This document shows, in pieces, positions 2,603 to 29,868 of a stretch of DNA of 64,000 bases. The position numbers and the translations under genes are program-made. The stretch is taken from the NCBI GenBank assembly GCA_963765625.1, contig CAVXXD010000005.1, forward strand, positions 191,113-255,112, in the 5' to 3' direction. Source of the stretch: an uncultured bacterium (GTDB taxonomy: Bacteria; Actinomycetota; Geothermincolia; Geothermincolales; Geothermincolaceae). The notes beneath the pieces are model-generated. The model did not search any database. It saw nothing but the letters and a program-made list of their open reading frames with translations, and was not told where the DNA came from. The first letter of the stretch is position 1. Each line of letters opens with the position of its first letter.

Positions 2603-4222
2603 TCACTGAATGACTTTCCACGATTTTACCTGGAAGGGTATGGGGAAACCGGCGACCGGCACGGAAGGCCGGCGATAGGTGATGCCGGTGCCCGTCCAGA
2701 GGGACAGGTCCGCGTCGCGCAACATGATCGAGCCCTTGGCGGTGATCTGTCCCAGGATATCCTTGAAGAACTGCAGGGGATAGTCTACCGCATAATCGCT
2801 GCCGTTGTACCCCGAGTAGATGAAGAGGGTATCCATGGGGGACAGGTTCCAGTCGATGCCGCTGCTGAACCTGACCTTGCCCTGGGCGATAACCTGATAC
2901 TCGCAATTCTCCTCCATCCACCAGCCGGAATTTATGGTGACGTCCCCCAGCGCCACGAACACCCCCTTGGTGTTGGCCTTCAGATCCGTACTGTCGATCA
3001 ACAGGTTGCCCTCGCTGAAACATATCCAGCCGTTGAAGAGGGCCTGGGTGGACTCGTTGATCTCTATGGGGTCAGGAGTGGCGGTCCCGCCGTTGGAACT
3101 ATTCCAGTACTGGGCACTGTCGTCGGAGCTGAAATAGTGCTTCTCGGAATACCCGTTATCCTCCGCCCAGACGTCCTGTATCTTGGCCTGGGCGCGGTAC
3201 CAGTCCCAGTCAGGCTCGGGCAGGACGACTTCGGGCACGATGCTGCTGCCCTGATATTCGCTTCTAGTGCCCAGGATGGTCAGGTAGCCGCCGAGCTTTA
3301 TCCCGAATATCGAGATGGGATTGTCGATATCGGCCGTATCCAGGTCACCTCCGGCGATGCAGTTGCCGTCAATGGTTATGTAGGAAGATGCCAGAAGCCA
3401 TGTCTCGGCGTCCAGGTCTATCTCCCCGCCGGCAAAGACACCCTCCCCGAGGGCCTCGAACTGGGCCGAGTCGAAGGAACTGCCCCCGGTCACCCTCACC
3501 GCCGAGCTGGCGGCTATGCCGGAAAACGCCCTCAGGTGGCAGTAATCCCTGGCGTAGACGTTACCGTTGATCTGCAACCCCACGCCGAAGCCCAGGATCA
3601 GTTTTTCATTGAGAAAATCCAGGTTCCTGCCGTAGACGTTGCCGTTGACCTTGAAGTCCGTGTAGCCCAACAAGCCCCCGGAATCGAGGTATATGGTTCC
3701 GGACTCGGAAAAGAGCACGTAATTCAGGGCATCGAAATACTTGTCGGTCCCTGCGAAAGCCACCTTCTCCTCCAGTTTGCGGGTGAAGGTCGTGCCGTCG
3801 TCATTGGTGTAAGTGCCCGTGGAAGTGATCGTCCAGTCCTTGGAGCCGTTGAGGGGATCGCTGTTTTCGATGGTGGCGATGAAGTAAGGGTTGGCGTCGA
3901 GGCGCGGGTCGTCCGGATCCTCGGGGATCGTCTTTCCGGAAACGGGCACCAGTTCCCTGGACAACTCGGCATGAGCCGCCGATATGCCGCTCTCGGCTGC
4001 GTCGAAAGCCTTGCCGGACGCCATGAGGCCCTGGGCGTTCATCAGGGAGTAGAGGGCCATGATCATTGCCGTAGCGCCCAGAACGGCCAGCATGGAGATG
4101 ATAAAGAGCACCATGACCATGGCAAACCCCTCTTCACTCCGCTCAACTGTCCCCGTCCGGCCTTCTCGAGCCGGCGTCCGCGCCTGCGTGATCCTCTTGT
4201 ATCTTCTCATGTAGCCTCTCAT
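2603..4222 (-). CDS. PilX-like minor pilin / pilus-associated protein (PilX_N-type N-terminal TM segment)
   Basis: 539 aa; basic leader then hydrophobic EGFAMVMVLFIISMLAVLGATAMIMA segment typical of the PilX N-terminal domain; last gene of the minor-pilin operon. Confidence 0.55.
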   Translation of the reverse strand: MRGYMRRYKRITQARTPAREGRTGTVERSEEGFAMVMVLFIISMLAVLGATAMIMALYSLMNAQGLMASGKAFDAAESGISAAHAELSRELVPVSGKTIPEDPDDPRLDANPYFIATIENSDPLNGSKDWTITSTGTYTNDDGTTFTRKLEEKVAFAGTDKYFDALNYVLFSESGTIYLDSGGLLGYTDFKVNGNVYGRNLDFLNEKLILGFGVGLQINGNVYARDYCHLRAFSGIAASSAVRVTGGSSFDSAQFEALGEGVFAGGEIDLDAETWLLASSYITIDGNCIAGGDLDTADIDNPISIFGIKLGGYLTILGTRSEYQGSSIVPEVVLPEPDWDWYRAQAKIQDVWAEDNGYSEKHYFSSDDSAQYWNSSNGGTATPDPIEINESTQALFNGWICFSEGNLLIDSTDLKANTKGVFVALGDVTINSGWWMEENCEYQVIAQGKVRFSSGIDWNLSPMDTLFIYSGYNGSDYAVDYPLQFFKDILGQITAKGSIMLRDADLSLWTGTGITYRRPSVPVAGFPIPFQVKSWKVIQ

Positions 4223-4237
4223 CTTCCATCACTCCCT

Positions 4238-4900
4238 TTATGGGTACACTGCCAGCTGGTTGCGGATGGACACCGATTCAGTTCCTGAGGTGGTCACGTA
4301 TTGGTCGGATTCATACATCCTGTGGCCTTCCGAGCCTGAGCCTACCGCGATCTGGTAGCCGCGCGTGATGGTCATGTTGATCTCCACGCGCTCGATAACG
4401 GTGGTATCGACTACGCCATCTTCTCCGGTTTCGTACGCGGTTATTATTTTGCCGTCCGCATCGTAGTAACTAAAGGCGAGGCTCTCTACGTCAGTGACGA
4501 TGGTTTCCGCGGCTTCCCCTTCCGCCTGGGAGACCTGCAGTTCGGTCCCGTTCAGCGTGAAAGTGATCAGGCGGGTCTGGGTCGCATCGGCATACGCGTA
4601 GAAGCTGACGCTGCTCCCGCCCGGCACGCACCCTCCCGGCACGAAGTAATGGGCCACTCTCATCTGCCAGGTCATCTTATCCATGGCCTGGCGCCATTCC
4701 TGATTGATCTCGGCATTGTACATGGTCGTCCTGGTCAGAGAGACCCCGGTCTGCGAGAAGTTGAAGGCGGCGTAGGTGAGCACGAACAGGAGCATTATCC
4801 CGACCAGCAGCTCGGCTATGGAGAAGGCATCCTCTCGCGCCAGCCGCTCCCGGCAACCTGCCTTGACCGCCTGGAACCTGTTCACTTTCGCGTCTTTCAT
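4238..4900 (-). CDS. PilW-like minor pilin (prepilin-type N-terminal domain)
   Basis: 220 aa; EDAFSIAELLVGIMLLFVL resembles the prepilin cleavage/methylation segment, with Glu at +5 but Ala instead of Gly at -1. Confidence 0.5.
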   Translation of the reverse strand: MKDAKVNRFQAVKAGCRERLAREDAFSIAELLVGIMLLFVLTYAAFNFSQTGVSLTRTTMYNAEINQEWRQAMDKMTWQMRVAHYFVPGGCVPGGSSVSFYAYADATQTRLITFTLNGTELQVSQAEGEAAETIVTDVESLAFSYYDADGKIITAYETGEDGVVDTTVIERVEINMTITRGYQIAVGSGSEGHRMYESDQYVTTSGTESVSIRNQLAVYP

Positions 4901-4913
4901 ATCCTCACTTCCC

Positions 4914-7724
4914 CTACCATGTCTGCCCGCTCGGGTTACCAGAGGTCAGACTCTTTATCGTCCACCGGTTGGTGTACGGCGTAGACTGACTGTCGATACT
5001 ATTCGTCAAGGTGATGTCGTAGTCGCCCGTGCCGGAGTTCACGTTCCAGTTCGGGCTGAAAGAACCGTGGCTGTTCCAGTTCGCCAGTGTGCTGTCGGGC
5101 ACCGTGTAGAGCAGCACACTGTGGTTGACGCGATCGACGATCGCCACATACTGCCCGGTCATGTCCACCCCGTTGCTGCCGTCAGCTTCTATGTTGATAC
5201 TGGTATTGGAGCCCGTAGTGGAGTCGAGAAAACCCTTGCCCTTGAGCATCATCTTGATGTCACCATAACGTTTGCCCCAGGCTTTGGCGGACGCCGTTTC
5301 GACAGTATAGTAGTAGTTGTTCGCGAAAAGCCAGTAGTAATACCTTATGGTCACCGCGCCGGAGCTGGCGGCAAGAAGTGTCGGTGCGCCATATTGCACC
5401 GTGAAGGTCGACCCCACGTACTCCCCTGGCTCGTAAGGGTCCACGACCCATAGTTTATACAGAGTCCCGCCAACCACACAGGGGACCTGGATGAGATTGA
5501 GTTCTCCCGCCACGGTTGTCGTCGTAATGGCCGCTGCCGCTTCCCCGTCACCTACCCCGATCTCGTAACGCGTCCCGGTGCCGTCGTTCTTCTGGTAGTA
5601 GACCTTGTCCGTAGGCAGGAACCCGGTGCCGGTCACCGCCAGCCCCAGGTCGTAGTAGTTATAGTACCAGCCGGAATTAGCACCGGTTGCAGTGTTCCTG
5701 ATAGTAGTGATCGTCGGCTTGTTGCGCACCAGGTAGGCGTATGTCGTCGTGCTGTCCATAACGGCATCCAGATAGGCCTGCTGGTGTGTCACGGTATTAT
5801 ACAGGTACAGCCAGCACTCGGAAGGCGATACCTGCGCGTTGAACCCGTTAAGGTTGAAGTTCGCCTCAATCAGATCGGAGCTCAGGTACTGGATGTCACC
5901 TGCCGCGACGTACTCCGGCAGCGTGCCTCCCCATTCGTCGATAGGCTCCCAGGTCTCAGGGTCGTATCCCACCGACGGCAAGGGCATGTCCACGATTCCC
6001 GCCGCCCCGAGGTAGACCTTTACCTCGTCCCAGTTATCCTGCACGTCCAGGCTCTTGCCCTCGATGGTCAGGTTGTACGTCTTGTTCTTGAAGCCCCAGT
6101 TGCGCCTGAACCCGCCAAAAGCAGTATAAACACTCGTGTCGTACATACGATAGACGCTCAGCTGCGGCTCCTCCACGTCGACATAGAACGTGGAGATACC
6201 CACCCTGTCCCCGAGTTGCCCGACCCTGTCGTAGTCCCGGCAGTTCCAGACCTCGACGTAGTACCGCTGGTAATTCTTGGTCGTGACGACGCCATCTTCA
6301 TCCACCACGGTCTTCTCGAAGGGGTAGTCCCAGCCTTCAGTCGAACGTCCCCTGAGGTTGAACTGGTCGGTGATGGTGTCGCTGTCCGCGCCGCCCGTGT
6401 AATTATTGCCGCTGACGATGCTGGTCGGGGTGGATTGGATGTCTTCCTTGCTCAGGTAGCGGTCCTGGATCACCCTGGTGCGGTCTACGGTACCGTCGGC
6501 ATTGCACCAGACCAGTTGCATCACCGCATAGCATCGCCGCAGGCGGACGGGGTACGTCGCGCTGCTGTTCCAGGCCAGTATGGGATTGCCCTTGATGGTA
6601 GCCGCGAAACTGCCTACACTTCCGGCGACATCCTGGAAATTACCCTCCGCGGTGACGGGGAAGATCTCCCCGTTGGTCTCGCTGCTCACGGCCTCATCTA
6701 TCACGGGTTCGGGGAACTCCACCACGAATCCCTGGTAGAGTATGGCATAAGCCGATTCCTTGTCGAGCCTCACATCCCATCCCCCCGGCTCGGCGTAGCT
6801 GCCGAAACTCGCCCAGGGCATGGTCTCGAGATTGTTGACGCTCGCAAGGTTGACGGACCCCCACAGAATGCCGTCCTGCACCTCGCTGGTATCCGTCAGG
6901 GTGATCGGGATGTCATCGTGACCCTGCATCGTCAAGCAGGCCGTGCTGCTGGCATCGAACCCGTATCCGGTTATCTTCAAGGGTATGCTGTTGACGTTAT
7001 GCGGCGCGGAGTTGGAAGTGGAGCCCTGCTTGCTCGTATCCCCGCCCTGGCTGATAACCTCGATCGCGGATACGCCCAGGTTGGCCTGGGCCTGGGTCCG
7101 CGTCATGACCGACGTGGTCGAATTGCTCTTCTCCGCTCCGTTGTCATCCATGTAGTAAGCCTTCACCTCGAACTTGATGAGGTTGATGGGCATGTTCGTA
7201 TCGTCACTCGGATCGTCGGTATTGGCGCTGGCGTAGGTGCTGCTCTTGCCTTTTGGCCCCCAGTATCCCCACATGGACGCCAGGGTCATGTCGTCATTGA
7301 GGAAGGCCATGTTGACGGTAATGCGGAATTGGGGATAGGGATCCTGATCGTAATCCTTGACCTCGACTTCGTACTGGTCGTCCCACGAGTTATCGAGGCC
7401 CCTGGACCCGGAGACCGCTTCCCAGTAGAAATCGTCCATATCCGTTTCCCCTACTTCTGAGTTGTAGGGCGTGTAGAACGACCTTGACCAGACGATTTCC
7501 GAGTAGTTGCGCAGGCACACCTCGGCCTTGTTCAGGTCCGCGGCCGTGGAAGATAACCTGATGGAAGTACCAAAGAGCTGCATCAGGGGCAGGGTGACCA
7601 TGGTCAGCACCAGCCCGGCTACGAGCACTTCAACGATGCTGAAGCCTCCCTGGTTGCGCCCAGGCGTCATCGTCTTTCTGAGCATCCTTTTCCAGCGCTT
7701 CATCTGTCTCACCCTTCCACTCAA
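4914..7724 (-). CDS. Giant modular type IV pilin-like protein (class III signal peptide + ~880-aa C-terminal module), putative pilus-tip adhesin
   Basis: 936 aa; basic leader ...GRNQG|FSIVEVLVAGLVL with Gly-1/Phe+1/Glu+5. ORF-track start 7724 is TTG; ATG at 7703 preceded by an AGGGTGAG SD is an alternative. Large Ser/Thr/Asn/Tyr/Trp-rich extracellular portion. Confidence 0.65.
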   Translation of the reverse strand: MSGRVRQMKRWKRMLRKTMTPGRNQGGFSIVEVLVAGLVLTMVTLPLMQLFGTSIRLSSTAADLNKAEVCLRNYSEIVWSRSFYTPYNSEVGETDMDDFYWEAVSGSRGLDNSWDDQYEVEVKDYDQDPYPQFRITVNMAFLNDDMTLASMWGYWGPKGKSSTYASANTDDPSDDTNMPINLIKFEVKAYYMDDNGAEKSNSTTSVMTRTQAQANLGVSAIEVISQGGDTSKQGSTSNSAPHNVNSIPLKITGYGFDASSTACLTMQGHDDIPITLTDTSEVQDGILWGSVNLASVNNLETMPWASFGSYAEPGGWDVRLDKESAYAILYQGFVVEFPEPVIDEAVSSETNGEIFPVTAEGNFQDVAGSVGSFAATIKGNPILAWNSSATYPVRLRRCYAVMQLVWCNADGTVDRTRVIQDRYLSKEDIQSTPTSIVSGNNYTGGADSDTITDQFNLRGRSTEGWDYPFEKTVVDEDGVVTTKNYQRYYVEVWNCRDYDRVGQLGDRVGISTFYVDVEEPQLSVYRMYDTSVYTAFGGFRRNWGFKNKTYNLTIEGKSLDVQDNWDEVKVYLGAAGIVDMPLPSVGYDPETWEPIDEWGGTLPEYVAAGDIQYLSSDLIEANFNLNGFNAQVSPSECWLYLYNTVTHQQAYLDAVMDSTTTYAYLVRNKPTITTIRNTATGANSGWYYNYYDLGLAVTGTGFLPTDKVYYQKNDGTGTRYEIGVGDGEAAAAITTTTVAGELNLIQVPCVVGGTLYKLWVVDPYEPGEYVGSTFTVQYGAPTLLAASSGAVTIRYYYWLFANNYYYTVETASAKAWGKRYGDIKMMLKGKGFLDSTTGSNTSINIEADGSNGVDMTGQYVAIVDRVNHSVLLYTVPDSTLANWNSHGSFSPNWNVNSGTGDYDITLTNSIDSQSTPYTNRWTIKSLTSGNPSGQTW

Positions 7725-8269
7725 TATGTGACATTACCCAGTTCGTTGATGCTTACCGTCTTGGATTTACCACCACAACTTATCGTAACCGACGCGGGTG
7801 TGATGTTCATGAGGACGCCCTGAGGCTGGATGACGATGGTAGCTGCGCTTTCGATGCTCAAATCAGACTGGCCATCCAGTAATTTGTTGATGTATTTGCC
7901 GCCCTCTTCGTCATAGGAAACACCGGCGGGCGGTTGTTCCGAGGTAGTGATAGTCGTGCCGTAGGGATCGACATACGAAGTGCTCACCTCGTAGGTGTTA
8001 TTACTATCGTTGAAGGTCAATGTAACCGTGCGATTCTGGTTGACGGCCAGGTTCACCGCATTGTCCATGGCTGCCTTGACCTGTTCGGCCGCGGCGTTGA
8101 GCTGGCTGGTTTCCCGCATGTTCATGTAGTTGAATACCGCGAGGCCGCTGATGATGGAAAGAATGAGGATGTAGGCTATCAGTTCGACCAGGGTGAATCC
8201 GCTTTCTTCCCTGGACCTGGCAGACAGTTTCTCGATCACGTTTTCCTCCCCCGGTTTATATCCAACCAT
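7721..8269 (-). CDS. FimT/GspH-like minor pilin (prepilin-type N-terminal cleavage/methylation domain)
   Basis: 182 aa; ...REESG|FTLVELIAYILILSII canonical G/FTLxE prepilin motif; first gene of the operon; stop overlaps next gene start. Confidence 0.6.
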   Translation of the reverse strand: MVGYKPGEENVIEKLSARSREESGFTLVELIAYILILSIISGLAVFNYMNMRETSQLNAAAEQVKAAMDNAVNLAVNQNRTVTLTFNDSNNTYEVSTSYVDPYGTTITTSEQPPAGVSYDEEGGKYINKLLDGQSDLSIESAATIVIQPQGVLMNITPASVTISCGGKSKTVSINELGNVTY

Positions 8270-8520
8270 TACCTATATTTTACCATTTCGCCTGATAGGC
8301 CTTTTGTGGGTAGACTTGCCTGAAAAGCCGCTCCGTTTCCGCTCTAACCAGTACTTTTATCGTCACGATCACTCTGTTTCCTTTAGCTCAATCAATATAT
8401 AGCAATGCAAAAGCTGTGCAAAGTATGTTACGTTTATGTTACGCTCAAATTATAATACCTGTTCAATGGCGGTTTTATCAATATTCTTACACTATCCCTA
8501 TTATATTAGTATATTATTTC
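8270..8520 (-). promoter_or_regulatory. AT-rich intergenic island, presumed promoter region of minor-pilin operon
   Basis: ~250 bp at ~30% GC inside a ~65% GC genome, directly upstream (minus strand) of the FimT-like gene; no convincing -35/-10 pair resolved by eye. Confidence 0.3.
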
Positions 8521-8964
8521 TTACAGCTTTTTTCCCTGTAATATCGCCTCCAGTGCAAGCAGGTAGGAAAGGTGCCCGAAACCGCTGATCACGCCGTATG
8601 CCGCCGGGGATATCACCGACCTGCTCCGCCACTCCTCCCGGGAGAAGATGTTACTGAGGTGCACCTCCACCACCGGAACGGAGATAGCGCGCACCGCATC
8701 ATGCAGGGCATAGCTGTAATGGGTCAGGGCTCCGGGGTTCAGTATCACTCCCGCATAACCTTCCCGGGCTTCCTGCAGCCAGTCTACCAGGGTTCCTTCA
8801 TGATTACTCTGGCGGATGTCGATCTCGCATCCCAGTTCCTCTGCCCGGCGGAAAAGCCCTTCCTCCATCTCCACCCAGGAAACCAGGCCGTAAAGTTCCG
8901 GCTCCCGCTCTCCCAGCAGGTTGAGATTCGGGCCGTTCAACAGCATCACCTTCAATGAGCCCAC
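8521..8964 (-). CDS. aroQ: 3-dehydroquinate dehydratase, type II
   Basis: 147 aa; type II DHQase motifs (LLNGPNLNLLG, HLSNI). Confidence 0.9.
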   Translation of the reverse strand: MGSLKVMLLNGPNLNLLGEREPELYGLVSWVEMEEGLFRRAEELGCEIDIRQSNHEGTLVDWLQEAREGYAGVILNPGALTHYSYALHDAVRAISVPVVEVHLSNIFSREEWRSRSVISPAAYGVISGFGHLSYLLALEAILQGKKL

Positions 8965-10112
8965 TTCCCGTCACCCCTTTCCTCGATGATCCCGGCATCC
9001 TCCTCCAGGACCGTCCGGATGGCTGAGACCATCTCCCGGTCCGGGTTCCGGCATAAAGTCACAGGTTGGCCGATGTTCTCGAGCAGCACCAGGCGCAGTC
9101 CTCCTTCTTCCCGCTTCTTGTCGAAGGACATGCTTTTCACCATGTCCCCGGCAAGCCCTTCCGCGTCAGGCCCCTGTTGTATCAGGCCGGTCAGGCCCAG
9201 GCTTCTCAGCAATTCCATATGATTCAGATAAAGCCCTCTTCCGGCCAACTCGAGTGACTCCGACAGTCGCGCGGCCATGCGCATTCCCACCGCCACGGCT
9301 TCCCCGTGCAGGAAAGAAGAGAAGGCCGTGGCCGTTTCCAGCGCGTGGGCAAAGGTGTGCCCGTAGTTCAGCAGGATGCGGCGCCCACTCATATCTCGCT
9401 CGTCCTCCTCGACGAGCCTGGCTTTGATGGCGGCGCAAGCCGATATGGCCCTGACCAGCTCCACCTCCCGCCGATCCAGGAGCGCCGTCCCCTTCTCCTT
9501 CAGCCAGGCATGAAAGGCAGGGTCGAATACCATGGCATATTTCGCCACTTCTCCGAAGCCTGAGACATATTCCCGCTCCGGCAGGGTGGAAAGGAGGGCG
9601 GTGTCGCAAAAGACGCCGGCCGGCTGGTAAAAAAACCCCACCAGATTCTTCCCCTGAGGCATGTCCACTCCCACCTTACCCCCGATGCTTGAATCCACCA
9701 TGGCCATGAGAGTGGTCGGCACCTGGAAGTATCTGATCCCGCGCAGATAGGAAGCGGCAACGAATCCGCCCAGGTCGCCCGCTACTCCCCCGCCCCAGGT
9801 TATCAGGGCGTCGGAGCGTTCCACCCCCAGGCCCAGCATTTCACGGTATATACGGTTGACGGTGTTGAGGTTCTTGTGTTTTTCACCGGGCGGGAAAAGC
9901 ACCGGGTGGAGACTCCGCCCTCCCGCCCCCAGCCGTTCAGCCAGTTCGCTCCATTGACGGCGGTGCTTCTTCTCCAATGTAGTGTGGCTGATCAGAACGA
10001 CCTTCCGGCATCCGGCCAGGCCTGTCACCGAACCAGACAGGTGCTCCAGCATGCCCGAGCCGATGGTTACGTCGTACTCTCGTCCCGGCAGGTTTACCGC
10101 GATCTTCTCCAT
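8952..10112 (-). CDS. aroB: 3-dehydroquinate synthase
   Basis: 386 aa; DHQ synthase family, Gly-rich NAD-binding region. Confidence 0.9.
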   Translation of the reverse strand: MEKIAVNLPGREYDVTIGSGMLEHLSGSVTGLAGCRKVVLISHTTLEKKHRRQWSELAERLGAGGRSLHPVLFPPGEKHKNLNTVNRIYREMLGLGVERSDALITWGGGVAGDLGGFVAASYLRGIRYFQVPTTLMAMVDSSIGGKVGVDMPQGKNLVGFFYQPAGVFCDTALLSTLPEREYVSGFGEVAKYAMVFDPAFHAWLKEKGTALLDRREVELVRAISACAAIKARLVEEDERDMSGRRILLNYGHTFAHALETATAFSSFLHGEAVAVGMRMAARLSESLELAGRGLYLNHMELLRSLGLTGLIQQGPDAEGLAGDMVKSMSFDKKREEGGLRLVLLENIGQPVTLCRNPDREMVSAIRTVLEEDAGIIEERGDGKWAH

Positions 10113-10603
10113 ATTTCCTCGATCTCCGCCGCTACTTCCCCGGGTTCCCTGCCGTCCGTATCGATGGAATGGTCGGCTGTCTCCCGGTAATACGGTTCTC
10201 TCTCTTCGAGCATCTTCCTGATCTTGTCAAGCCGCCCGTCTCCCGCCAGTAAGGGGCGGGTATTGTCTTTTTCGAGCCGGCGCAGTATCGCCTCCGGTGA
10301 TGCCAGGAGATGGAACACTTCTCCCGAGTTTCGAAGGGCCACCCGGTTGCCGGCCCGCAGTACCGCTCCGCCTCCACAGGAGACGACTTTCGGAGCTTCT
10401 TCGATCAGGCCGTGGATGACCTCGCCCTCCTTATCCCGGAAGGTTTCTTCACCCAGGTCCCGGAATATGTCAGCCACCGTCATGCCCGTGTCTTCCTCCA
10501 CCCTGGAGTCCGTGTCCGCGAAAGGCATTCCCAGGCGGTCAGCCAGGTCCCTGCCCACGCTGCTCTTTCCGGTCCCCATGAAGCCTATGAGAATCAGGTG
10601 CAC
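10094..10603 (-). CDS. aroK: Shikimate kinase
   Basis: P-loop LILIGFMGTGKSSVGRDLA plus shikimate kinase core. The ORF-track 371-aa form runs out of frame through aroC and is rejected. GTG at 10603 gives ~170 aa just after the aroC stop. Confidence 0.8.
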   Translation of the reverse strand: MHLILIGFMGTGKSSVGRDLADRLGMPFADTDSRVEEDTGMTVADIFRDLGEETFRDKEGEVIHGLIEEAPKVVSCGGGAVLRAGNRVALRNSGEVFHLLASPEAILRRLEKDNTRPLLAGDGRLDKIRKMLEEREPYYRETADHSIDTDGREPGEVAAEIEEIWRRSR

Positions 10604-10611
10604 CCCGCGCC

Positions 10612-11772
10612 TCAGAAGGCTCTCAGTGTTTCCAGGTAATGGCGGTACCTGCTTTCCACTTCTTCCATGCAGTCGCCCCCGGTCTTCTCCAGCAAGGCGT
10701 CGGCCAGGACCCAGGCAACCATACTCTCGGCCACGACCCCCCCGGCAGGGACCGCGCAGACATCGGAGCGCTCGGGTAATGCCCCGGCTGCTTCTTTCGT
10801 CTCGATATCCACGGTAGGAGCGGGCTTGCCAAGGGTAGGTATGGGCTTCATGGCCGCCCGAACCCGTATAGTCTCGCCGTTGCTTACACCGCCCTCTATG
10901 CCGCCGCCGTGGTTTTCCAGGCGGTGAAACCCTTCGCCCCGGGTGTAAGCAATCAGGTCCAGAGAAGAGCTCCCTGGAGACAGCGCGAGAGTAAGGCCGT
11001 CTCCTATCCCTACTTCTTTCACGGACTGGATGGACAATAGCGCTTGCCCCATCAATCCGTCCAGCCGCCGGTCCCAGTGAACATGGCTCCCGAGGCCGGG
11101 GGGCACGCTGAATGCAAGCACCTCGAAAACACCGCCCAAAGTATCCCCCGCTTCGGCCGCCTGGTCGATACTCTTTATCATCTCCCGCGACGCACTCTCG
11201 TCCAGGCATCGCAGATCGTTTTCTTCCGCTTTAGCCAGGTCCTCCAGTCCGGGGGCCCGGTTCAGGTCAGCCGCAATGCCTCCGATGGACAGTACGTGTG
11301 AGCGTACCTCGATCCCTAGCCGGCGCAGGATGAGCCTGGCCACGCTGCCGGCGCATACTCTGCCCACGGTTTCCCTGGCCGAAGCTCTCTCCAGGATGTC
11401 CCGGATGTCCCTGGTGCCATATTTCTGTGCTCCCGCCAGGTCGGCATGTCCGGGCCGGGGAGCAGTGACTTTCTTCCCTGTCTTCCCCATCTCCCGGGGT
11501 TCTGCCCCCATCAGCTCGAGCCAGTTGGCGTGGTCCCGGTTCTCAACCCATAAAGTGATGGGGCTTCCCAGCGTGTTTCCGTGACGGACTCCGCTCAAAA
11601 TCTCCACCCGGTCCCCTTCAATGGCCATACGCTTGCCGCGTCCATAACCGCGCCGCCGGCGATCCAGTTCTTCATCGATGTACTCATGCCGCACCCCCAG
11701 GGATGCCGGGCAACCTTCAACGATGGTGCAGACGCCGCGTCCGTGCGACTCTCCCGCGTCAAGAAACCTCAC
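10612..11772 (-). CDS. aroC: Chorismate synthase
   Basis: 386 aa; MRFLDAGESHGRG N-terminus and chorismate synthase signatures. Confidence 0.92.
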   Translation of the reverse strand: MRFLDAGESHGRGVCTIVEGCPASLGVRHEYIDEELDRRRRGYGRGKRMAIEGDRVEILSGVRHGNTLGSPITLWVENRDHANWLELMGAEPREMGKTGKKVTAPRPGHADLAGAQKYGTRDIRDILERASARETVGRVCAGSVARLILRRLGIEVRSHVLSIGGIAADLNRAPGLEDLAKAEENDLRCLDESASREMIKSIDQAAEAGDTLGGVFEVLAFSVPPGLGSHVHWDRRLDGLMGQALLSIQSVKEVGIGDGLTLALSPGSSSLDLIAYTRGEGFHRLENHGGGIEGGVSNGETIRVRAAMKPIPTLGKPAPTVDIETKEAAGALPERSDVCAVPAGGVVAESMVAWVLADALLEKTGGDCMEEVESRYRHYLETLRAF

Positions 11773-11842: not shown

Positions 11843-12559
11843 TCAGATCCTTCTCAGCTGGCCTTTCTGCAGTTCGTAGGTCTCGTCTCCGCACATCAGC
11901 ACGAGAACGGTGCTGGACTTGAACTCTACGATCTTATAATTGTTGCCGAAGCTCACGCCCGCTTTTATGTTCTCGTAGCTCGTGTCCCCGACCTTTATCT
12001 TGGCGTATTTGATGCCGCGGCTCTCGAAGATGTCCTGAACCAGTATGACCTGCCCGCTGCTGACCTCCGCCGTCACCGGTACGGTCGAAGAAGGAGTGGT
12101 GGTTGGAGCTGTTGATGAACCTGCCGTTCCCTCGTCCAGATCACGGTTCAGTATCAAGCCTAGTTTTGAGTCCAGTGTCCCTTCGTTATCGACCAGCGCC
12201 CCCACATCACCCATCAGCGGCATGAAGGGGTCGTTCAACACCCACACGTCCGAATAAGGTATCTCTCCCGGATAGGACGACTCGACCAGCTGGATGTTGA
12301 AGTGCTGTTCGATCGTCCGGGATACTATGGCATCCGACTCCAGCGCTCCGGCATTCTGGCCGGGCGCTAAAGACTGCGCGAGCGACCTGTCGATCGTCGT
12401 GTTGTCATTGTCGCCGAAGCTGGTTGAAAGGAACAGGAGTGACGCTATCAGAGCAACGGCAAGACTGCCGAACAGCCTTATCCTTCTGTTGGCCTCGACC
12501 TCCATGGCTTCCTGCTTCTTTCTATTCGCGCTGTTTTCGGTTCTTTTCATCATATCCAC
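11843..12559 (-). CDS. Membrane-anchored hypothetical protein, possible PilP-like pilus assembly component
   Basis: 238 aa; one N-terminal TM helix, Ser/Thr/Pro linker, C-terminal beta-rich ~80 aa; directly follows pilM-pilN-pilO in what looks like the same operon. Confidence 0.35.
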   Translation of the reverse strand: MDMMKRTENSANRKKQEAMEVEANRRIRLFGSLAVALIASLLFLSTSFGDNDNTTIDRSLAQSLAPGQNAGALESDAIVSRTIEQHFNIQLVESSYPGEIPYSDVWVLNDPFMPLMGDVGALVDNEGTLDSKLGLILNRDLDEGTAGSSTAPTTTPSSTVPVTAEVSSGQVILVQDIFESRGIKYAKIKVGDTSYENIKAGVSFGNNYKIVEFKSSTVLVLMCGDETYELQKGQLRRI

Positions 12560-12574
12560 CTCGGCTATACGATT

Positions 12575-13138
12575 CTACTTGGTCAAGAGCAGCTCGACGC
12601 CGTTGGGCGTTGTAAAGAATATCTTGAAAGTAACGGTTATTTGCAGGTAGGGCAAGGTATCTTCGCCGGCCGAGACGGCCAGGATCACTGGCTTTATGGA
12701 GCGAGGCAGTTTTTCAACCTGGTTGAAAAACTCAACCATGTTGAAATAACGGCCGTTTAAAACCGTTGCGATCGAGGATACGTAGAACTTTCCCTGCTGT
12801 ACAGGCATTTCCGGCGTAAGGCTGAAGAAATCCAGCCCTGCTTTTTCCGCGGCGTAGTCCAGCTGCTGGACGACGTCGGCCAGGTCGACGTTCTCGGGTA
12901 TCTTGCCGTCCAGGGCGCTGATCTGGCGCGTGAACTGCTCAGGGTCCTTGTTGTATGCTTCCAGCTGGGCTTGACGGCCCTGTTCTTTGCTGTATTCGGA
13001 TTTTACGCTGCTGATCTGTCCATCAAGGTCGCTGACTTTGTTCTTTTCAGGCAATACGATAAACGCCACTCCGATCGCCAGAAGTATTATGGCTACGACT
13101 ACCACGATAATCAGGTAAAAGCGCGGATTGATTTTCAT
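12575..13138 (-). CDS. pilO: Type IV pilus assembly protein PilO
   Basis: 187 aa; N-terminal TM + coiled coil + PilO-like C-terminal domain; position after pilN. Confidence 0.7.
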   Translation of the reverse strand: MKINPRFYLIIVVVVAIILLAIGVAFIVLPEKNKVSDLDGQISSVKSEYSKEQGRQAQLEAYNKDPEQFTRQISALDGKIPENVDLADVVQQLDYAAEKAGLDFFSLTPEMPVQQGKFYVSSIATVLNGRYFNMVEFFNQVEKLPRSIKPVILAVSAGEDTLPYLQITVTFKIFFTTPNGVELLLTK

Positions 13139-13974
13139 TTCCCACTACCTCCGGTGGTGGTTCCCGTTTCTTCGGCATTCTTAGACTTGAGGTCCCATGG
13201 CGCCTTTTCAGTATTCCAGTAACCATCGATCTCGAAGGCGATGGCCCAGTCCTGATAAGATTCATCCACAACGGTCTGGGTGCCGTTTTCGTCCACTTCT
13301 TCGTGCTGCACCGTTATGGTCACCGGCTCCTGGGTGGAACTCACTATCCACAGGTTGCTCCATTCCTCCATGTTTTGCAGCCTGACATAGAATTCAGCTA
13401 CCTTTGGCTGGCCACGGAAATAGTAGTAGTAGGGATAGGCGTCAAGAAAGCCGTGAGCCTTGAAGTCGCTGGCCCGGGGCAGCCATGTTTGAATGCAGAG
13501 CCAGGCCGGAGCAGCGTATCCAGTCATGGTTATCGAGGGTGACGAACTAGTCTCGGCTCCTCCCTCGAGTGGCGTCGCATCGATATTCAGGCTGGTCAGC
13601 CAGATGGCCGGTGCGCGCGAATTGCTCGCGGTAGTCAAACCTTCAGGCACATAAAGTGCCAGGTCGTTCAGCATGCTCGCCCAGCCGACCCTGCCGACGT
13701 TACAGGCTGCGTAAAGATCCTGGATGCTCTGGAGTTCGGCAGCCTGCTCTTCATAGACCTGGAGCGGCTCCTCGACCTTTTTCTGAAGTTCCTGCAACTC
13801 GGCTTCCTGGTCCTTGAGATCTGCCTCCTTACTGGTAACCTGGTTATGGAAGAAGAGCCAGCCCACTCCCACCAGTACCACTACCGCCAGCAGCGATATA
13901 ACGATCCAGGGAATGAGGTTTACCCTTTCGGCCTTTCCCTTTATCTCGGGAGGAAGCAGGTTTATGCGCGTCAT
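13135..13974 (-). CDS. pilN: Type IV pilus assembly protein PilN (with C-terminal extension)
   Basis: 279 aa; conserved N-terminal INLLPPE motif, TM helix, coiled coil. Confidence 0.75.
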   Translation of the reverse strand: MTRINLLPPEIKGKAERVNLIPWIVISLLAVVVLVGVGWLFFHNQVTSKEADLKDQEAELQELQKKVEEPLQVYEEQAAELQSIQDLYAACNVGRVGWASMLNDLALYVPEGLTTASNSRAPAIWLTSLNIDATPLEGGAETSSSPSITMTGYAAPAWLCIQTWLPRASDFKAHGFLDAYPYYYYFRGQPKVAEFYVRLQNMEEWSNLWIVSSTQEPVTITVQHEEVDENGTQTVVDESYQDWAIAFEIDGYWNTEKAPWDLKSKNAEETGTTTGGSGK

Positions 13975-15044
13975 TATTCCATCACCTCTCTGAGGGCAAG
14001 GCCGATACAGACGGCAACTGAAGGTTCGATGTCGGCCAGCTCTTCAGCCGCGAAGGGAAGCTTGCCCATCTGGAGATTCTGGAAAGGTTTCCCCATCTCC
14101 ACCGGAATCCGCAGCCCGCGGTTCATCTCCTGAGAGAGGTTGAGGGTTTTTGACCCGCTTCCGGAGAGAATGACCTTCGAGAGGTTTCTCTCCTGGGTCT
14201 GCGCGACATAGTAATCGATGGATCGACGGACTTCACCGACGAAATTGAAGATCTCCTGCTGGAGTATCTTGTTCGCCTCTTCGTGGACCTGTTTGCCGGT
14301 CCTGATCTCTTCCGCTTCTCCTGCATCCATGTTCATGCGGTCCATGATGATGGAGGTAAAGTCGTTCCCTCCCCGCAGCAGGAAGCGCGCGAACCTGGGT
14401 ATCCGGTCCTTGAGAATGACTATATTGGTGATACCGGCTCCGATATTGACGATGCAGACGCTCTCTTCCTCCCCCGCCTCTTCCATCAGCTGCACCTCTC
14501 TCTTGATGAGGGAGCGGGGCAGGGCGAACGCCTTGAGGTCGATCGCCACCGGCACCAGGCCGGCGCTCTGCAGGACCCCGACGAAGCTCTGGATCATGTC
14601 CCGGTGGGCTGCCACCAGAAGCACCGTGAGCATCCGTTCTTCTTCGGCCGTCATGAACTCCTCGATGACTTCGAAATCAAGGACGGCATCCTCGGTGGGG
14701 ATGGGTATGAATTCCTGCACCTGGAAGCGGAGAGCCGAATCCAGCTCTTCCCTCTCCATGTACGGCAGTTCGATGGGGCGGACTATCACCTTCTGGTTGG
14801 CGATTCCCAGGATGACCTTTTTCCCTTTCAAGCCGGACCGGGTCCAGAGCTCCTTGAGCAGGTTGGAAAGGGACTCCGGGTCCTCGATCTCGCCGTCACG
14901 GATCACGCCTTCAGGGAGTTGGATGAACCCCAGGTTCGATAGAATGGCATCTCCCCGGTCGATCTCGACCTCCGAGACCTTGACCGAGCTATTGCTGATG
15001 TCCAGGCCAATTGCAGTCGTCTTCTTCTTTGGACTCATCATCAT
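13974..15044 (-). CDS. pilM: Type IV pilus assembly ATPase-like protein PilM (actin/FtsA fold)
   Basis: 356 aa; IGLDISNSSVKV N-terminus and actin-like ATPase fold motifs. Confidence 0.85.
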   Translation of the reverse strand: MMMSPKKKTTAIGLDISNSSVKVSEVEIDRGDAILSNLGFIQLPEGVIRDGEIEDPESLSNLLKELWTRSGLKGKKVILGIANQKVIVRPIELPYMEREELDSALRFQVQEFIPIPTEDAVLDFEVIEEFMTAEEERMLTVLLVAAHRDMIQSFVGVLQSAGLVPVAIDLKAFALPRSLIKREVQLMEEAGEEESVCIVNIGAGITNIVILKDRIPRFARFLLRGGNDFTSIIMDRMNMDAGEAEEIRTGKQVHEEANKILQQEIFNFVGEVRRSIDYYVAQTQERNLSKVILSGSGSKTLNLSQEMNRGLRIPVEMGKPFQNLQMGKLPFAAEELADIEPSVAVCIGLALREVME

Positions 15045-15490: not shown

Positions 15491-16270
15491 CTACCGCATC
15501 ATTGAGCGATATAGCTCGATTATCCACCCCCCCACAAATATCGATATCCAACTTCCTGCGATCAGATACGGTCCAAATGGTATCTTCGACTTCCACTCCT
15601 TTTTCCCTGTAAGAATTGGTGGGATTGACGCAATGCTTCCCAGAAGGAAACCGAGAAAGAGCGCGGGGATGACGTCCCAGCCCAGCACAACGCCTGAAAA
15701 TGCCATCAACTTGGCGTCACCCATGCCCATCCCTTTCGGATACAGCAGAGAGATCAGGCCCAGCGGCCCCCCGCCGATGAGCAGGCCGGCCCCCTGTTCC
15801 ACCAGGACCTGGCTGTCCCAACGGACCAGGGCGATCACTCCCACGTAGACCACGGCGATCAGAAGGGAAGGAAGGATGATGGCATTGGGGATTATCAGCT
15901 CCTTCAGGTCGATCATGCCGACCATCAGGGTCACCGTGACGAAAAAGAGATAGAGCGGCAGGAAGGCGTCCCATCCGAACCCGAAATGGGCGAAGACCGC
16001 CACGTACATGGCCGCGTTGGTGAACTCGACCAGGAGGTATACGGGGGAGATGCGGCAACCGCAACGGCGGCAGCGTCCGCGCAGTAACAGCCAGCTCAGC
16101 AGGGGTATATTGTCGTACCATTCGATGGGCGTGTCGCAACCCGGGCAGAACGACCTCGGCTTGACCACGGACAGGCCGCGAGGAACCCGGTAGATCACGA
16201 CATTGGCGAAACTGCCGATGGCCGAGCCCAGCAGGAACAGAACCACTGAAAAAAAGATAGCAGGTAACAT
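15491..16270 (-). CDS. pilD: Prepilin peptidase PilD (A24 family) with tetracysteine zinc motif
   Basis: CPGC...CRRCGC motif and 8 TM core. The ORF-track start 16348 (TTG) lies inside the pilA1 terminator hairpin, so the start is set at ATG 16270 (MLPAIFF...). TATAAT sits 9 nt upstream of that ATG, suggesting a leaderless mRNA. Confidence 0.85.
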   Translation of the reverse strand: MLPAIFFSVVLFLLGSAIGSFANVVIYRVPRGLSVVKPRSFCPGCDTPIEWYDNIPLLSWLLLRGRCRRCGCRISPVYLLVEFTNAAMYVAVFAHFGFGWDAFLPLYLFFVTVTLMVGMIDLKELIIPNAIILPSLLIAVVYVGVIALVRWDSQVLVEQGAGLLIGGGPLGLISLLYPKGMGMGDAKLMAFSGVVLGWDVIPALFLGFLLGSIASIPPILTGKKEWKSKIPFGPYLIAGSWISIFVGGWIIELYRSMMR

Positions 16271-16310
16271 GTTGGCCCAATTATAAGGAGGGCAGGTGAC
16301 AAAATCCCTG

Positions 16311-16338
16311 GCATCGAAAAGGGCCCCTGGGTGGGGCC
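16311..16338 (-). terminator. Rho-independent terminator downstream of pilA copy 1
   Basis: Minus-strand GGGCCCC-ACCCA-GGGGCCC hairpin followed by TTTTCG. Confidence 0.5.
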
Positions 16339-16374
16339 CTTTCTTCAATAACCGTTCTTCACACTCATCAGCTC

Positions 16375-16698
16375 TTAATCGCCATAAGTGTGTCCCAGAT
16401 CACAGACCGCGTACGGCGGCGTGCCGGTTACGACTTCGTAGGTGCCCCCAGCGGGGCACTCCGGCCAGTCCTTGAGGAGCTCGGGCACGTAGTCGGCGGA
16501 ATCCAGGGAGTAATCGTCAGCCCCCGCCCGATACTGTATGACGCAGCCGTCGATGGTCCTAAGGTTGTCCTTGCAGGCGCCTTCCTCCGCATTGCTCTGC
16601 GCGCTGAAGAACACCGGCACGGCAATGGCTACCAGTATACCGATGATAAGAATAACGACCATCAACTCGATGAGGGTGAACCCTTCCTGCTTTTTCAT
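16375..16698 (-). CDS. pilA: Type IV major pilin PilA, copy 1
   Basis: 107 aa; MKKQEG|FTLIELMVVILIIGILVAIAVP canonical prepilin signal; Cys pairs in C-terminal globular domain; strong GGAGGTG SD. Confidence 0.88.
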   Translation of the reverse strand: MKKQEGFTLIELMVVILIIGILVAIAVPVFFSAQSNAEEGACKDNLRTIDGCVIQYRAGADDYSLDSADYVPELLKDWPECPAGGTYEVVTGTPPYAVCDLGHTYGD

Positions 16699-16790: not shown

Positions 16791-17114
16791 TTAATCGCCA
16801 TAAGTGTGTCCCAGATCACAGACCGCGTACGGCGGAGTGCCGGTAACGATCTCATAGGTGCCGCCAGCGGGGCACTCCGGCCAGTCCTTGAGGAGCTCGG
16901 GCACGTAGTCACCGGAATCCAGTGAGTAATCGTCAGCCCCGGCACGGTACTGCATTACGCAGCCGTCGATGGTCCTCAGGTTGTCCTTGCAGGCGCCTTC
17001 CTCCGCATTGCTCTGCGCGCTGAAGAACACCGGCACGGCAATGGCTACCAGGATACCGATGATAAGAATAACGACCATCAACTCGATGAGGGTGAACCCT
17101 TCCTGCTTTTTCAT
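16791..17114 (-). CDS. pilA: Type IV major pilin PilA, copy 2
   Basis: 107 aa from ATG 17114 with the same GGAGGTG SD; the ORF-track upstream extension is ignored; 3 aa substitutions relative to copy 1 (V/M, A/G, V/I). Confidence 0.88.
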   Translation of the reverse strand: MKKQEGFTLIELMVVILIIGILVAIAVPVFFSAQSNAEEGACKDNLRTIDGCVMQYRAGADDYSLDSGDYVPELLKDWPECPAGGTYEIVTGTPPYAVCDLGHTYGD

Positions 17115-17233: not shown

Positions 17234-18460
17234 CTAGCTGCCGCCGGCGAACTGGCCGATGAGGGAGAAAATGGGCATGTAAAGGGAGATGACGATGGTT
17301 CCGACAACCCCTCCCAGGAGGACCATCATCAGGGGCTCCATCAGGGAGGTCAGAGACTCCACCGCTGCTTCGATCTCGGAGTCATAGAAGTCGGCGACCT
17401 TGTTGAGCATGGTATCCAACGCCCCGGTCTCTTCGCCGATGGCCAGCATCTGGGTGACCATGGGTGGGAACAGCGGGTTAGTTGCCAGCGGCTGTGCGAT
17501 GGACTCTCCCTCCTTGACGCCCATGCGAACGCTTTCGACGGCATCCGCGACCAGCCTGTTCCCGACGGTCTCGGAGGTGATCTCGAGGGCTTGCAGGATG
17601 GGTACGCCGGAAGAGACCAGGGTTCCCAGGGTACGGGAGAACCGGGACATGGCCATCTTGTGGAAGAGCGTGCCGAACACCGGCATTTTCAGCTTGAAAG
17701 CGTCCACTTTCCTTCTGCCGCTATCGGTTTTCTTCCATCTCCTGAAGAAATAGATGCTGAAGCCTACCACGAAGTAGAAGACCAGGCCGGCTAGGCTCTT
17801 GATGAAGTTGCTCAGGTTGATGATGAACTTGGTCAGTGCCGGCAGCGTCGCCCCCATCTGCTCGAACATGTTCACGAAGGTGGGGACCACCACTACCAGC
17901 ATGACTACCAGCAGATGCATGGAGATACCCAGCATGGCGATGGGGTAGGTCATGGCTGATTTTATTTTACGCCTGATGTTGTCTTCGTTCTCCAGGGTCA
18001 GGGCTACACGCAGCAGGACGTCGTCGAGCACGCCGCCGATCTCGCCGGCCTTGACCATGCTGGTATAAAGCTGTTTGAAGGTGTCGGGGTGCTTGCTCAT
18101 GGCCTCGGACAGGGAACGGCCCATCTCCACCTCGTGCTGGACATCCTGCACGACGCTGGCCAGTACCGGGCTGTCTGTCTGCTCGGCCAGAATGGCCAGG
18201 CATTTTACCAGCGGCAGGCCGGCATTGATCATGGTCGCGAACTGGCGGGTGAATACCGTTACGTCCTTGCCCTTGACCTTGGGCTTGAAGATGTGGAGTT
18301 CCTTCTTGCCCATGGCTGCCTTTTCCTTGTCTACCCCGATGACGAAGTAGCCCATCTGGCGCAGCCGCTGCGATACGTTGGCTTCGCTGTCCGCTTCCAG
18401 GGTGCCGGTTATGATCTTTCCCTGGCGGTCTCTCACCCTATAGGAATAAGTATCTGCCAT
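17234..18460 (-). CDS. pilC: Type IV pilus inner-membrane platform protein PilC (GspF family)
   Basis: 408 aa; two GspF-like repeats and TM segments. Confidence 0.9.
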   Translation of the reverse strand: MADTYSYRVRDRQGKIITGTLEADSEANVSQRLRQMGYFVIGVDKEKAAMGKKELHIFKPKVKGKDVTVFTRQFATMINAGLPLVKCLAILAEQTDSPVLASVVQDVQHEVEMGRSLSEAMSKHPDTFKQLYTSMVKAGEIGGVLDDVLLRVALTLENEDNIRRKIKSAMTYPIAMLGISMHLLVVMLVVVVPTFVNMFEQMGATLPALTKFIINLSNFIKSLAGLVFYFVVGFSIYFFRRWKKTDSGRRKVDAFKLKMPVFGTLFHKMAMSRFSRTLGTLVSSGVPILQALEITSETVGNRLVADAVESVRMGVKEGESIAQPLATNPLFPPMVTQMLAIGEETGALDTMLNKVADFYDSEIEAAVESLTSLMEPLMMVLLGGVVGTIVISLYMPIFSLIGQFAGGS

Positions 18461-18614: not shown

Positions 18615-19358
18615 CTAGTCACCTGCTTGATCTTCCTCCCCGGAAACAGGTTCAGCAATGGTTTTCCGCAATTCACTGATCCGGTCCTCCAGAAGATTGA
18701 TCTTGGTGACAACGAACTTCCTGGCGGCCTGGTCCAGCCCTTCACGCATCAAGGCCAAACGGTAGTAGTCCAGTTGCTCCCGCAGGGCAGCAATGGCTCC
18801 GGCCGGGTCTCCCAGGGCGTTGCTGGTCACGGCGATCCCGGCGGTCAGGTACATCATGTCCACGAATTCCAGCCGCTTGCCGATGGCTTCCCGGTAGGCC
18901 TCCCGGGCTTGTTGGTATTTTTCCTGCCTCATGTAGAGGTCGGCCAGGCTGGCGTAAAGATCGCCGTTGTCCGGGTTGTTGGCTATCCCCTCCAGGGTGA
19001 AATCTATGGCCTCCTGCTCGCTGCCGGCGTAGAAGATGGTCGCTCCGCCCACGTAATACGCGTCGATATAGTGGGGGTCGAGGTAGCTTATCAGCTTATA
19101 ATACGGGATCAGCTCGGATTCAGAGCTGAGGCTTTCATAATAGCCGTGATGGAGGCTTTCCGTCCTGATCCAGAGGACGTAGGCCAGGAACTGCCTGACA
19201 CCACCGAGAAAGTCCAGGTAGTTGACGCTGGCGGAAGCCCCCTCGCCGGCCCGGCTTTCCTCGCCGCCCAGGTCCGACCGCCCCAAAGCCACCTGTGCGA
19301 AAGAGCCCGCCAGGATAAGAGCGGCCAGGATGACGCAGAGAACAGCCCTCTTCCTCAA
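18615..19358 (-). CDS. Secreted TPR-repeat protein (PilG-like accessory partner of the ABC transporter?)
   Basis: 247 aa; signal peptide (MRKRAVLCVILAALILAGSFAQVALG), TPR-like Tyr/Ala-rich helical repeats; start overlaps the permease stop. Confidence 0.55.
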   Translation of the reverse strand: MRKRAVLCVILAALILAGSFAQVALGRSDLGGEESRAGEGASASVNYLDFLGGVRQFLAYVLWIRTESLHHGYYESLSSESELIPYYKLISYLDPHYIDAYYVGGATIFYAGSEQEAIDFTLEGIANNPDNGDLYASLADLYMRQEKYQQAREAYREAIGKRLEFVDMMYLTAGIAVTSNALGDPAGAIAALREQLDYYRLALMREGLDQAARKFVVTKINLLEDRISELRKTIAEPVSGEEDQAGD

Positions 19359-25418: not shown

Positions 25419-25430
25419 TTACCCTACTCC

Positions 25431-29828: not shown

Positions 29829-29868
29829 ACTGCATCATCTTCCGGTAAGGGTTGGTATCCACATTTCT

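Follow-up and report, generated by a model that had tools for sequence, protein, structure and literature searches.

The minor-pilin operon near the start of the window (the whole 64,000-nucleotide stretch of contig CAVXXD010000005.1 analyzed here) raises the question of why a protein of about 100 kDa should begin like an ordinary pilin, and what its remaining bulk is for. An earlier reading of the letters alone (the sequence-only reading) had described the gene, which lies on the minus strand and ends at position 4914, as encoding a prepilin N-terminus to which an extracellular module of ~880 residues is joined. Our analysis indicated that the product, called the target below, consists of a leader, an I-like pilin module, four IPT/TIG domains (D1 to D4) and an unclassified terminal domain (D5). 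With an N-terminal pilin module and additional non-pilin modules, it fits the definition of a modular pilin. On balance, we consider it probable that the target serves a retractile type IVa pilus (T4aP) as its I-type core minor pilin, enlarged to a modular pilin and acting as a tip adhesin.

Gene integrity and the pilin base

A single open reading frame (ORF) ran without interruption over 4914..7724 on the minus strand, comprising 936 codons when counted from a TTG, as the sequence-only reading had seen. That reading left the start codon ambiguous between TTG 7724 and ATG 7703. We chose ATG 7703 because public gene calls start there, the N-termini of homologues align there, GGAAGGGTGAG stands just 5' of it, and the TTG, from which the translation opens LSGRVRQ-MKRWKRMLRKTMTPGRNQGG-FSIVEVLVAGLVLTMVTLPLMQLFG, overlaps the TGA stop codon of the upstream gene; the TTG was rejected as a start. 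The mature product was computed at 909 amino acids (aa), 100.4 kDa and pI 4.3, close to the ~900 aa estimated earlier.

A long ORF of this kind might be an artefact that fuses a small PilV gene with a downstream surface-protein gene. Frame errors do occur in such assemblies, as at the related locus L003, where the homologous genes are split into overlapping ORFs. However, the errors at L003 divide a gene instead of joining two, intact homologues of 780-900 aa are present in many unrelated samples, and the junction between the pilin module and D1 (ANLGV motif) is continuously conserved. The exact 929-aa protein was recorded on a 460-kb NCBI/ENA contig and in independent Logan assemblies of run ERR15459710, and relatives of 35-46 % identity aligned with it from end to end. 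The identical product in independent assemblies and the full-length relatives indicated a real gene and no frameshift fusion, so that the artefact is effectively refuted; the split ORF that the sequence-only reading had named as a possible refutation did not appear. The damage at L003 (9998-14845) extends over the I-, J- and K-like genes and pepP, all broken by apparent frameshifts, and most likely reflects assembly or sequencing errors of that metagenome-assembled genome (MAG) and not pseudogenes.

The N-terminus carries a class III signal peptide, with the leader MKRWKRMLRKTMTPGRNQGG followed by FSIVEVLVAGLVLTMVTLPLMQLFG (a slash marks the predicted cut in the motifs below). Translation confirmed the prepilin features reported previously: the N-terminus, ...GRNQGG/FSIVEVLVAGLVLTMVTLPL, has Gly at -1, Phe at +1 and Glu at +5 (Glu5), then about 20 hydrophobic residues. 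The G/F[ST]xxE motif was present in all close relatives.

Structure was predicted with AlphaFold2 on a 25-sequence alignment, which gave a predicted local distance difference test score (pLDDT) of 75.5 and was used throughout; a 4-sequence alignment gave 34.6 and was discarded. In the model, an unbroken 50-residue alpha1 helix (residues 23-72) carries Glu5 and is followed by a four-stranded sheet (113-116, 127-135, 175-185 and 191-201; local pLDDT ~75-88). This predicted structure is a pilin fold, for which an extended helix of ~50 residues against an antiparallel sheet is typical. An N-terminal helix buried in a globular non-pilin fold, which would have spoken against the sequence-only reading, was not what the model contained. 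As residues 21-205 belong to the pilin module, the grafted part amounts to ~720 residues (210-929) and not to the ~880 first proposed.

Within the pilin module, Asp88, Asp90 and Asp91 (a DxDD motif) and Asp163 were invariant across 23-25 relatives. The acidic cluster D88-x-D90-D91 with D163 could be a putative metal (Ca2+) site in the alpha-beta loop. PFY and WGPK motifs of the same module were likewise conserved across all 23-25 relatives. Against the PDB, the N-terminal profile gave weak generic pilin alpha1 matches alone (geopilin, E 0.0085).

Assignment to the I position of the minor-pilin operon

Four genes with pilin N-termini are packed into 2603-8269 on the minus strand, with gaps of 13-17 nucleotides (nt): the stop codon of the H-like gene lies 17 nt ahead of ATG 7703, and the J-like gene starts 13 nt past the stop of the target. 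Orthologues of the first gene matched GspH, ComGD and Verru_Chthon cassette D; those of the third matched GspJ (E 1.5e-04, in L006), HpsC and Verru_Chthon cassette C; and an orthologue of the fourth gave a weak GspK match (E 0.045). The target matched TIGR02523 (PilV) over its first ~100 residues with E 1.9e-05, or 1.1e-06 for the isolated module, at 25.2-29.2 bits, under the curated cutoff of 52.2 bits. Among the N-terminal modules of 23 relatives, PilV was matched by 15 (best 1.7e-09), XpsI by 5 and GspI by 2, all below threshold. The matches of the target to TIGR02523, TIGR01707 (curated cutoff 44.35 bits) and XpsI cover its first ~85-100 residues.

Across the H-I-J-K genes, residue +5 followed the pattern E, E, E, non-E in all four loci compared, and the K-like protein had Met, Met, Leu or Phe at this position. 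Absence of Glu5 marks PilX/GspK, the capping subunit of the tip complex (PMC7541494; PMC9934059). The H-I-J-K order was conserved in L001, L004 and L006. Because gene order, the pattern of profile matches and the Glu5 pattern agree, though each match is weak alone, we placed the target at the I position, as an I-like (PilV/GspI-like) subunit of the core minor-pilin set and not as a proven equivalog. Its 909-aa mature length and five extra domains exceed the size typical of I subunits (roughly 100-180 aa, a single domain). The prepilin peptidase and the assembly machinery are encoded in the same cluster as the target.

The sub-threshold N_methyl and PilV scores, together with a size that might hinder incorporation, would also fit a surface protein that uses its class III signal peptide for membrane anchoring only and never enters a filament, in a manner comparable to archaeal class III signal-peptide surface proteins. 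We regard this as very improbable, since Glu5 is conserved, as is the alpha1 helix over its full length, and the gene has been kept at the I position of the H-I-J-K operon across distant relatives. Moreover, HIJK subunits have proved indispensable as nucleators in the systems investigated so far (PMC9934059), and S. sanguinis does incorporate large modular pilins (PMC8179133).

The K-like minor pilin of the operon is itself unusually large, at 539 aa here and 502-795 aa in relatives (orthologues at L001:13070-14578, L004:11420-13318 and L006:11353-13740), and had no Pfam or NCBIfam match save the one weak GspK match. Its extra domains could be a second tip effector. The AT-rich intergenic stretch that separates aroQ from the H-like gene contains a promoter-like consensus match, which possibly drives the minor-pilin operon.

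The distal module

Beyond residue 201, the AlphaFold2 model contained beta structure only. Sequence searches of Pfam, NCBIfam and the PDB returned no match past the N-terminus of the target, a full-length phmmer search against PDB sequences returned none, and Pfam TIG (PF01833) matched neither the target nor 25 relatives, even at E <= 0.05-10. The IPT/TIG identity was instead established by profile-profile and fold-level similarity. Repeat proteins matched by profile positions 215-345 and 498-665 carry Pfam TIG, with E down to 8e-73; we built a profile from these TIG repeats and ran hhalign between it and every slice of the family alignment. D1 to D4 matched this profile (Table 1), with a bias toward D1 and D3 because the TIG set had been gathered with the target family's own profile. 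The pilin module (21-208), used as a control, gave 0.1 %, E 0.72. D1 and D4 were related to each other by profile comparison (92.4 %). D1 was the best-conserved domain of the distal module; D2 carries lineage-specific insertions (341-363 and 461-480) of low alignment occupancy and low pLDDT. Foldseek searches of the PDB with the model returned generic multi-Ig proteins alone, at template modelling (TM) scores of 0.09-0.18, suggesting tandem beta-sandwiches and nothing more specific.

Of the domains that the sequence-only reading had proposed to look for, the Ig-like type was thus found, as the four IPT/TIG domains, and von Willebrand factor A (vWA) and lectin domains were not. Its remark that the module contained no known adhesin domain agreed with the lack of any Pfam or PDB sequence match to one. 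Its description of a module rich in Ser, Thr, Asn, Trp and Tyr also held: Thr, Asn, Trp and Tyr were enriched 1.8-2.9 fold and Ser 1.45 fold over the housekeeping proteins encoded in the window. The several Cys pairs that it had reported could not be upheld. There are only 7 Cys (0.8 % of the module vs a background of 1.1 %), not conserved as pairs, and among 25 relatives only C63, C742 and, partly, C488 were conserved; conserved disulfide pairs were rejected on Cys count and conservation. A sortase-type pilin was also rejected, as no [LIV]Px[TSA]G motif occurs anywhere in the protein and the C-terminus reads ...SLTSGNPSGQTW.

D5 was modelled with about 10 strands at pLDDT mostly 80-92, and is a candidate ligand-binding head. 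A D5 profile had no significant match in the PDB or Pfam, leaving a recognizable lectin or carbohydrate-binding module (CBM) unsupported. The same searches lent no support to SGBP-B-like glycan binding by D5, which bears on the idea that the target is an adhesin for a polysaccharide in the style of the Bacteroides surface glycan-binding protein SGBP-B, in which an IPT/TIG stalk would hold out a glycan-binding beta-domain at its end and the pilus would tether cells to plant, algal or microbial polysaccharide. SGBP-B and other surface proteins with IPT/TIG stalks are anchored by an outer-membrane lipoprotein N-terminus, whereas the target has a pilin helix that would sit in a filament. We view a polysaccharide ligand of this kind as rather unlikely.

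Exchange of the distal module among relatives

A word-indexed homology search recovered 4 relatives only, whereas an exhaustive HMMER search recovered 159 proteins at E <= 1e-3, 28 of them at E <= 1e-30 and most 670-900 aa long. At the 50 % identity level, the family numbers some 25 full-length relatives, and ~55 larger pilins have the same base. Members at 24-46 % identity fill the same slot, in the order H-like, large I, J-like and large K, between aroQ and pepP (loci L001, L003, L004 and L006). Conservation peaked in the pilin module and D1 and fell distally, and many large pilins (480-1,268 aa) had the base alone, or the base and D1, in common with the target.

In one relative, P0011, the target profile was followed to position 448, after which came an NHL/Vgb_lyase beta-propeller (E 1.4e-97); P0067 and P0082 also carried beta-propellers. 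The genes for P0011 and P0082 lie directly after an H-like pilin gene, as the target gene does, and their surroundings, an extracytoplasmic function (ECF) sigma factor and a DUF5667 protein, are common to the all-IPT member P0007. These loci show directly that the distal module has been swapped while the carrier and its place in the operon stayed the same. The exchange of an all-IPT stalk for NHL beta-propellers suggests that the distal part determines ligand specificity.

The exchange also bears on whether the module of a tip minor pilin might be mainly structural, as a bulky cork that keeps retraction from completing, a spacer that assists the growing filament across the thick cell wall or a docking platform for another effector protein. 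Four of the five module domains belong to the IPT/TIG type, which generically serves as a spacer or in protein interaction, and no recognized ligand-binding domain was found. Precedents exist in the cork proposed for the PilY1/minor-pilin complex (PMC7541494) and in the CofB minor pilin, an adapter that docks CofJ (PMC8179133). Nevertheless, NHL beta-propeller swaps at the same operon slot fit a changing ligand specificity better than pure sterics, and the terminal domain, conserved in ~20 relatives, has the abundance of Trp and Tyr that is common in binding surfaces. A mainly structural module appeared unlikely.

At loci L004, L007 and L008, the ECF sigma factor, the DUF5667 protein and an extra 215-243-aa ORF stand just upstream of the H-like gene; in L004 and L008, this set is placed between aroQ and the H-like gene.

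A model of tip display and the evidence that weighs on it

For the tip adhesin that we favor, a sequence of steps can be drawn by analogy from the accepted models of HIJK, of PilY1 and of PilABC in S. sanguinis. PilD, the predicted processing enzyme, would cut after Gly20 and methylate Phe21. The target would then join the H-, J- and K-like pilins in a priming complex in the membrane, with the K-like subunit lacking Glu5 on top. PilB-driven polymerization of major pilins beneath this complex would push it out to the pilus tip, with the tandem major pilins predicted to form the filament body below. There, the four IPT/TIG domains may act as a stalk that holds D5 off the filament to bind a surface ligand; from typical Ig-domain dimensions, the stalk could reach very roughly 15-20 nm if extended. 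PilT-driven retraction would finally pull on the contact. A single polypeptide would in this way unite the nucleator role of an I subunit with the effector role played by PilY1 in diderms and by PilB/PilC in Streptococcus sanguinis.

Several points weigh against this model. Among the four subunits, I is usually the smallest, and a 100-kDa version might not fit beneath J and K in the priming complex. The PilV/GspI profile scores (25-29 bits) lie under the curated cutoff of 52.2, and the PF07963 (N_methyl) match (E 0.034, 14.2 bits) is under its cutoff of 21.2; the short N_methyl motif model is a weak detector for so divergent a family, with matches at E <= 0.05 in 13 of 25 relatives (best 9.5e-05). 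The geometry between domains is uncertain in the AlphaFold2 model (predicted TM score 0.46). No recognized vWA, lectin or CBM binding domain was found in the target, and because D5 has no detected homologue, the adhesin role and the ligand are purely inferred. The organism is uncultured, and the reading is computational. The organism is probably a monoderm, a status based solely on the label of one related MAG (L002, uncultured Actinomycetota) and on the lack of a secretin in the cluster.

A bolder proposal, which we put forward only tentatively, is that an I/PilV nucleator has been turned into an effector carrier, giving a ~100-kDa, PilY1-independent pilin-adhesin with an IPT/TIG stalk, swapped heads and a D5 of new fold, in what is probably a monoderm actinomycetote.

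Comparison with known systems

Modular pilins had been placed by the sequence-only reading in a few monoderms. The census of Raynaud et al. 2021 (PMC8179133) is far broader, covering monoderms as well as diderms with > 1,200 proteins, 264 architectures and an extreme of 860 residues, and its authors foresaw many further modular pilins whose modules lack database signatures. The target is one of these. Like the target, the S. sanguinis proteins PilB (vWA) and PilC (lectin) have a class III signal peptide, a pilin module, a short linker and a non-pilin module, with predicted tip display in a minor-pilin complex of a retractile pilus (PilT is present). The logic of a carrier with an exchangeable effector is common to modular pilins and is supported here by the beta-propeller variants in the same slot; that exchange suggests that the module may take a direct part in adhesion. 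The target differs in that its module is much larger (~720 aa, five domains), contains no vWA or lectin domain and has no Pfam signature. It also differs in its carrier, which is of I type, whereas S. sanguinis has a small, unmodified I-like subunit, PilA, and bears its modules on PilB and PilC (PMC9934059).

As with PilV/GspI (XcpV), the target is second in an H-I-J-K operon, has Glu5, and combines alpha1 with a small beta-sheet; it departs from them in the long conserved loops of its pilin module with the invariant DxDD and D163. The diderm T4aP protein PilY1/PilC is similar in its ~100 kDa, its place in a minor-pilin tip complex and its variable effector domains on a conserved attachment part. 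The beta-propeller of some relatives of the target is a further parallel, though of the NHL/Vgb_lyase type and not of the PilY1 type. PilY1, however, does not belong to the pilins and uses a C-terminal PilY1 beta-propeller for attachment, whereas the target would use its own pilin helix. The PilY1 domain (PF05567) had no Pfam match in the target or in the other cluster proteins scanned, among which no PilY1-like protein or secretin was found. With no PilY1 in the cluster, the target may fill that role, as a functional analogue only.

Large minor pilins located at the tip, with extra beta-rich domains added onto or set into the pilin fold and a role in initiating assembly, are also represented by CofB of enterotoxigenic Escherichia coli, TcpB of V. 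cholerae and ComZ of Thermus (PMC8179133). These belong to type IVb or competence systems and not to the HIJK T4aP set. CofB has a beta-repeat and a beta-sandwich and ComZ a beta-solenoid, compared with the IPT/TIG array of the target, and PDB sequence and profile searches detected no sequence similarity between them and the target.

The core of the earlier suggestion of a new pilus-tip adhesin or lectin can be kept: the target is a pilin fused to a large module, and probably a tip adhesin, and the lectin found no support. What is new is the family and its architecture, with an I-type carrier, four IPT/TIG domains, an unclassified head and propeller variants; the principle was already known. 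The target is a clear case of an effector grafted onto the I-type core minor pilin itself, with natural swapping of an Ig-like stalk and a beta-propeller at one operon position. It bears on how simple type IV filaments gain functions and on what their tips carry in bacteria without PilY1. Since the domain databases miss the family, InterPro-based censuses of modular pilins undercount, as the census authors anticipated. The cluster also documents a T4aP system in Actinomycetota-related MAGs; actinobacterial pili studied experimentally to date are of the Tad/Flp (type IVc) type (PMC6916266). If the bolder proposal above is true, D5 would represent a ligand-binding fold of a new kind, and its family could serve as a tractable system for studying the accommodation of a bulky subunit below J and K in a priming complex. 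In practice the gain is modest and consists of a candidate adhesin and of an unclassified terminal domain that merits structure determination.

The pilus cluster and the wider window

Features of the locus are collected in Table 1. Downstream of the minor-pilin genes lie pepP, efp, asp23 and nusB.

Table 1. Features of the modular minor pilin gene and the surrounding pilus cluster, in window coordinates.
Feature	Position	Strand	Evidence or remark
Modular minor pilin coding sequence	4914..7703	minus	929 aa; ATG 7703, stop 4914-4916
Class III signal peptide leader, residues 1-20 (MKRWKRMLRKTMTPGRNQGG)	7644..7703	minus	sequence; predicted PilD cut after Gly20
Pilin module, residues 21-205, PilV/GspI-like	7089..7643	minus	AlphaFold2 model, TIGR02523
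D1, residues 209-335, IPT/TIG-like beta-sandwich	6699..7079	minus	hhalign 97.8 %, E 7e-13
D2, residues 336-514, IPT/TIG-like beta-sandwich	6162..6698	minus	hhalign 96.0 %, E 4.5e-09
D3, residues 515-664, IPT/TIG-like beta-sandwich	5712..6161	minus	hhalign 95.6 %, E 1.2e-08
D4, residues 665-776, IPT/TIG-like beta-sandwich	5376..5711	minus	hhalign 79.8 %, E 1.5e-05
D5, residues 777-929, Trp/Tyr-rich terminal all-beta domain	4917..5375	minus	AlphaFold2; hhalign TIG 1.1 %, E 0.049
Upstream GspH/FimU-like minor pilin, 182 aa, G/FTLVE	7721..8269	minus	Pfam GspH 1e-06, N_methyl 2.5e-05, TIGR01708 5.7e-10
Downstream J-like minor pilin, 220 aa, A/FSIAE, Glu5 kept	4238..4900	minus	orthologue profile matches
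Large K-like minor pilin, 539 aa, G/FAMVM, no Glu5, predicted tip cap	2603..4222	minus	+5 pattern, weak GspK
Sigma-70-like promoter match (TTGATA, 18 nt, TATTAT; 10/12)	8452..8481	minus	consensus match only
aroC-aroK-aroB-aroQ	~8521-11772	minus	
238-aa ORF	11843-12559	minus	no profile match
PilO	12575-13138	minus	profile 3e-14
PilN-like	13135-13974	minus	position
PilM	13974-15044	minus	profile 2.3e-57
Prepilin peptidase PilD	15491..16348	minus	Pfam A24_N_bact 2.2e-33, Peptidase_A24 4.5e-11
Two tandem major pilins, 107 aa each, 97 % identical, MKKQEG/FTLIELMVV	16375-16698, 16791-17114	minus	translation; N_methyl 3.2e-10
PilC	17234-18460	minus	T2SSF 8.4e-68
PilT-like ATPase	21084-22208	minus	read from translation, without profile scan
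PilB-like ATPase	22252-23910	minus	read from translation, without profile scan

Each of the tandem major pilins has four Cys in its small globular part (CKDNLRTIDGC ... WPEC ... AVC), and the pair is reminiscent of PilE1/PilE2 of S. sanguinis. The 238-aa ORF directly after pilO is conserved (233-238 aa; L001:4799-5500 and L006:2948-3652) and has one N-terminal hydrophobic segment; it is possibly a lineage-specific part of the machinery, perhaps PilP-like or spanning the cell wall. The space from pilMNO to the minor-pilin operon is occupied by the shikimate-pathway genes aroC-aroK-aroB-aroQ, and aroE stands just upstream of pilB. This interleaved order of aro and pilus genes is conserved in distant relatives (the same region in L001, L004, L006 and L008).

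Elsewhere in the window, an Rfam scan gave 6S RNA as its sole match above the gathering score, and no tRNA genes were found. The 6S RNA (SsrS) gene lies at 41023-41211 on the plus strand (RF00013, 81 bits, full-length). A tetratricopeptide repeat (TPR) protein and an ABC-2 type transporter permease/ATPase pair are encoded between pilT and pilC (18615-21066, minus strand). Upstream of aroE-pilB-pilT, the region 24885-31104 (minus strand) encodes a Ras-like small GTPase (177 aa), three Roadblock/LC7 proteins and a DUF4388 protein of 1,465 aa that contains long acidic and Pro/Ala-rich repeats. The GTPase/Roadblock module is MglA/MglB-like in arrangement and could regulate the pilus system.

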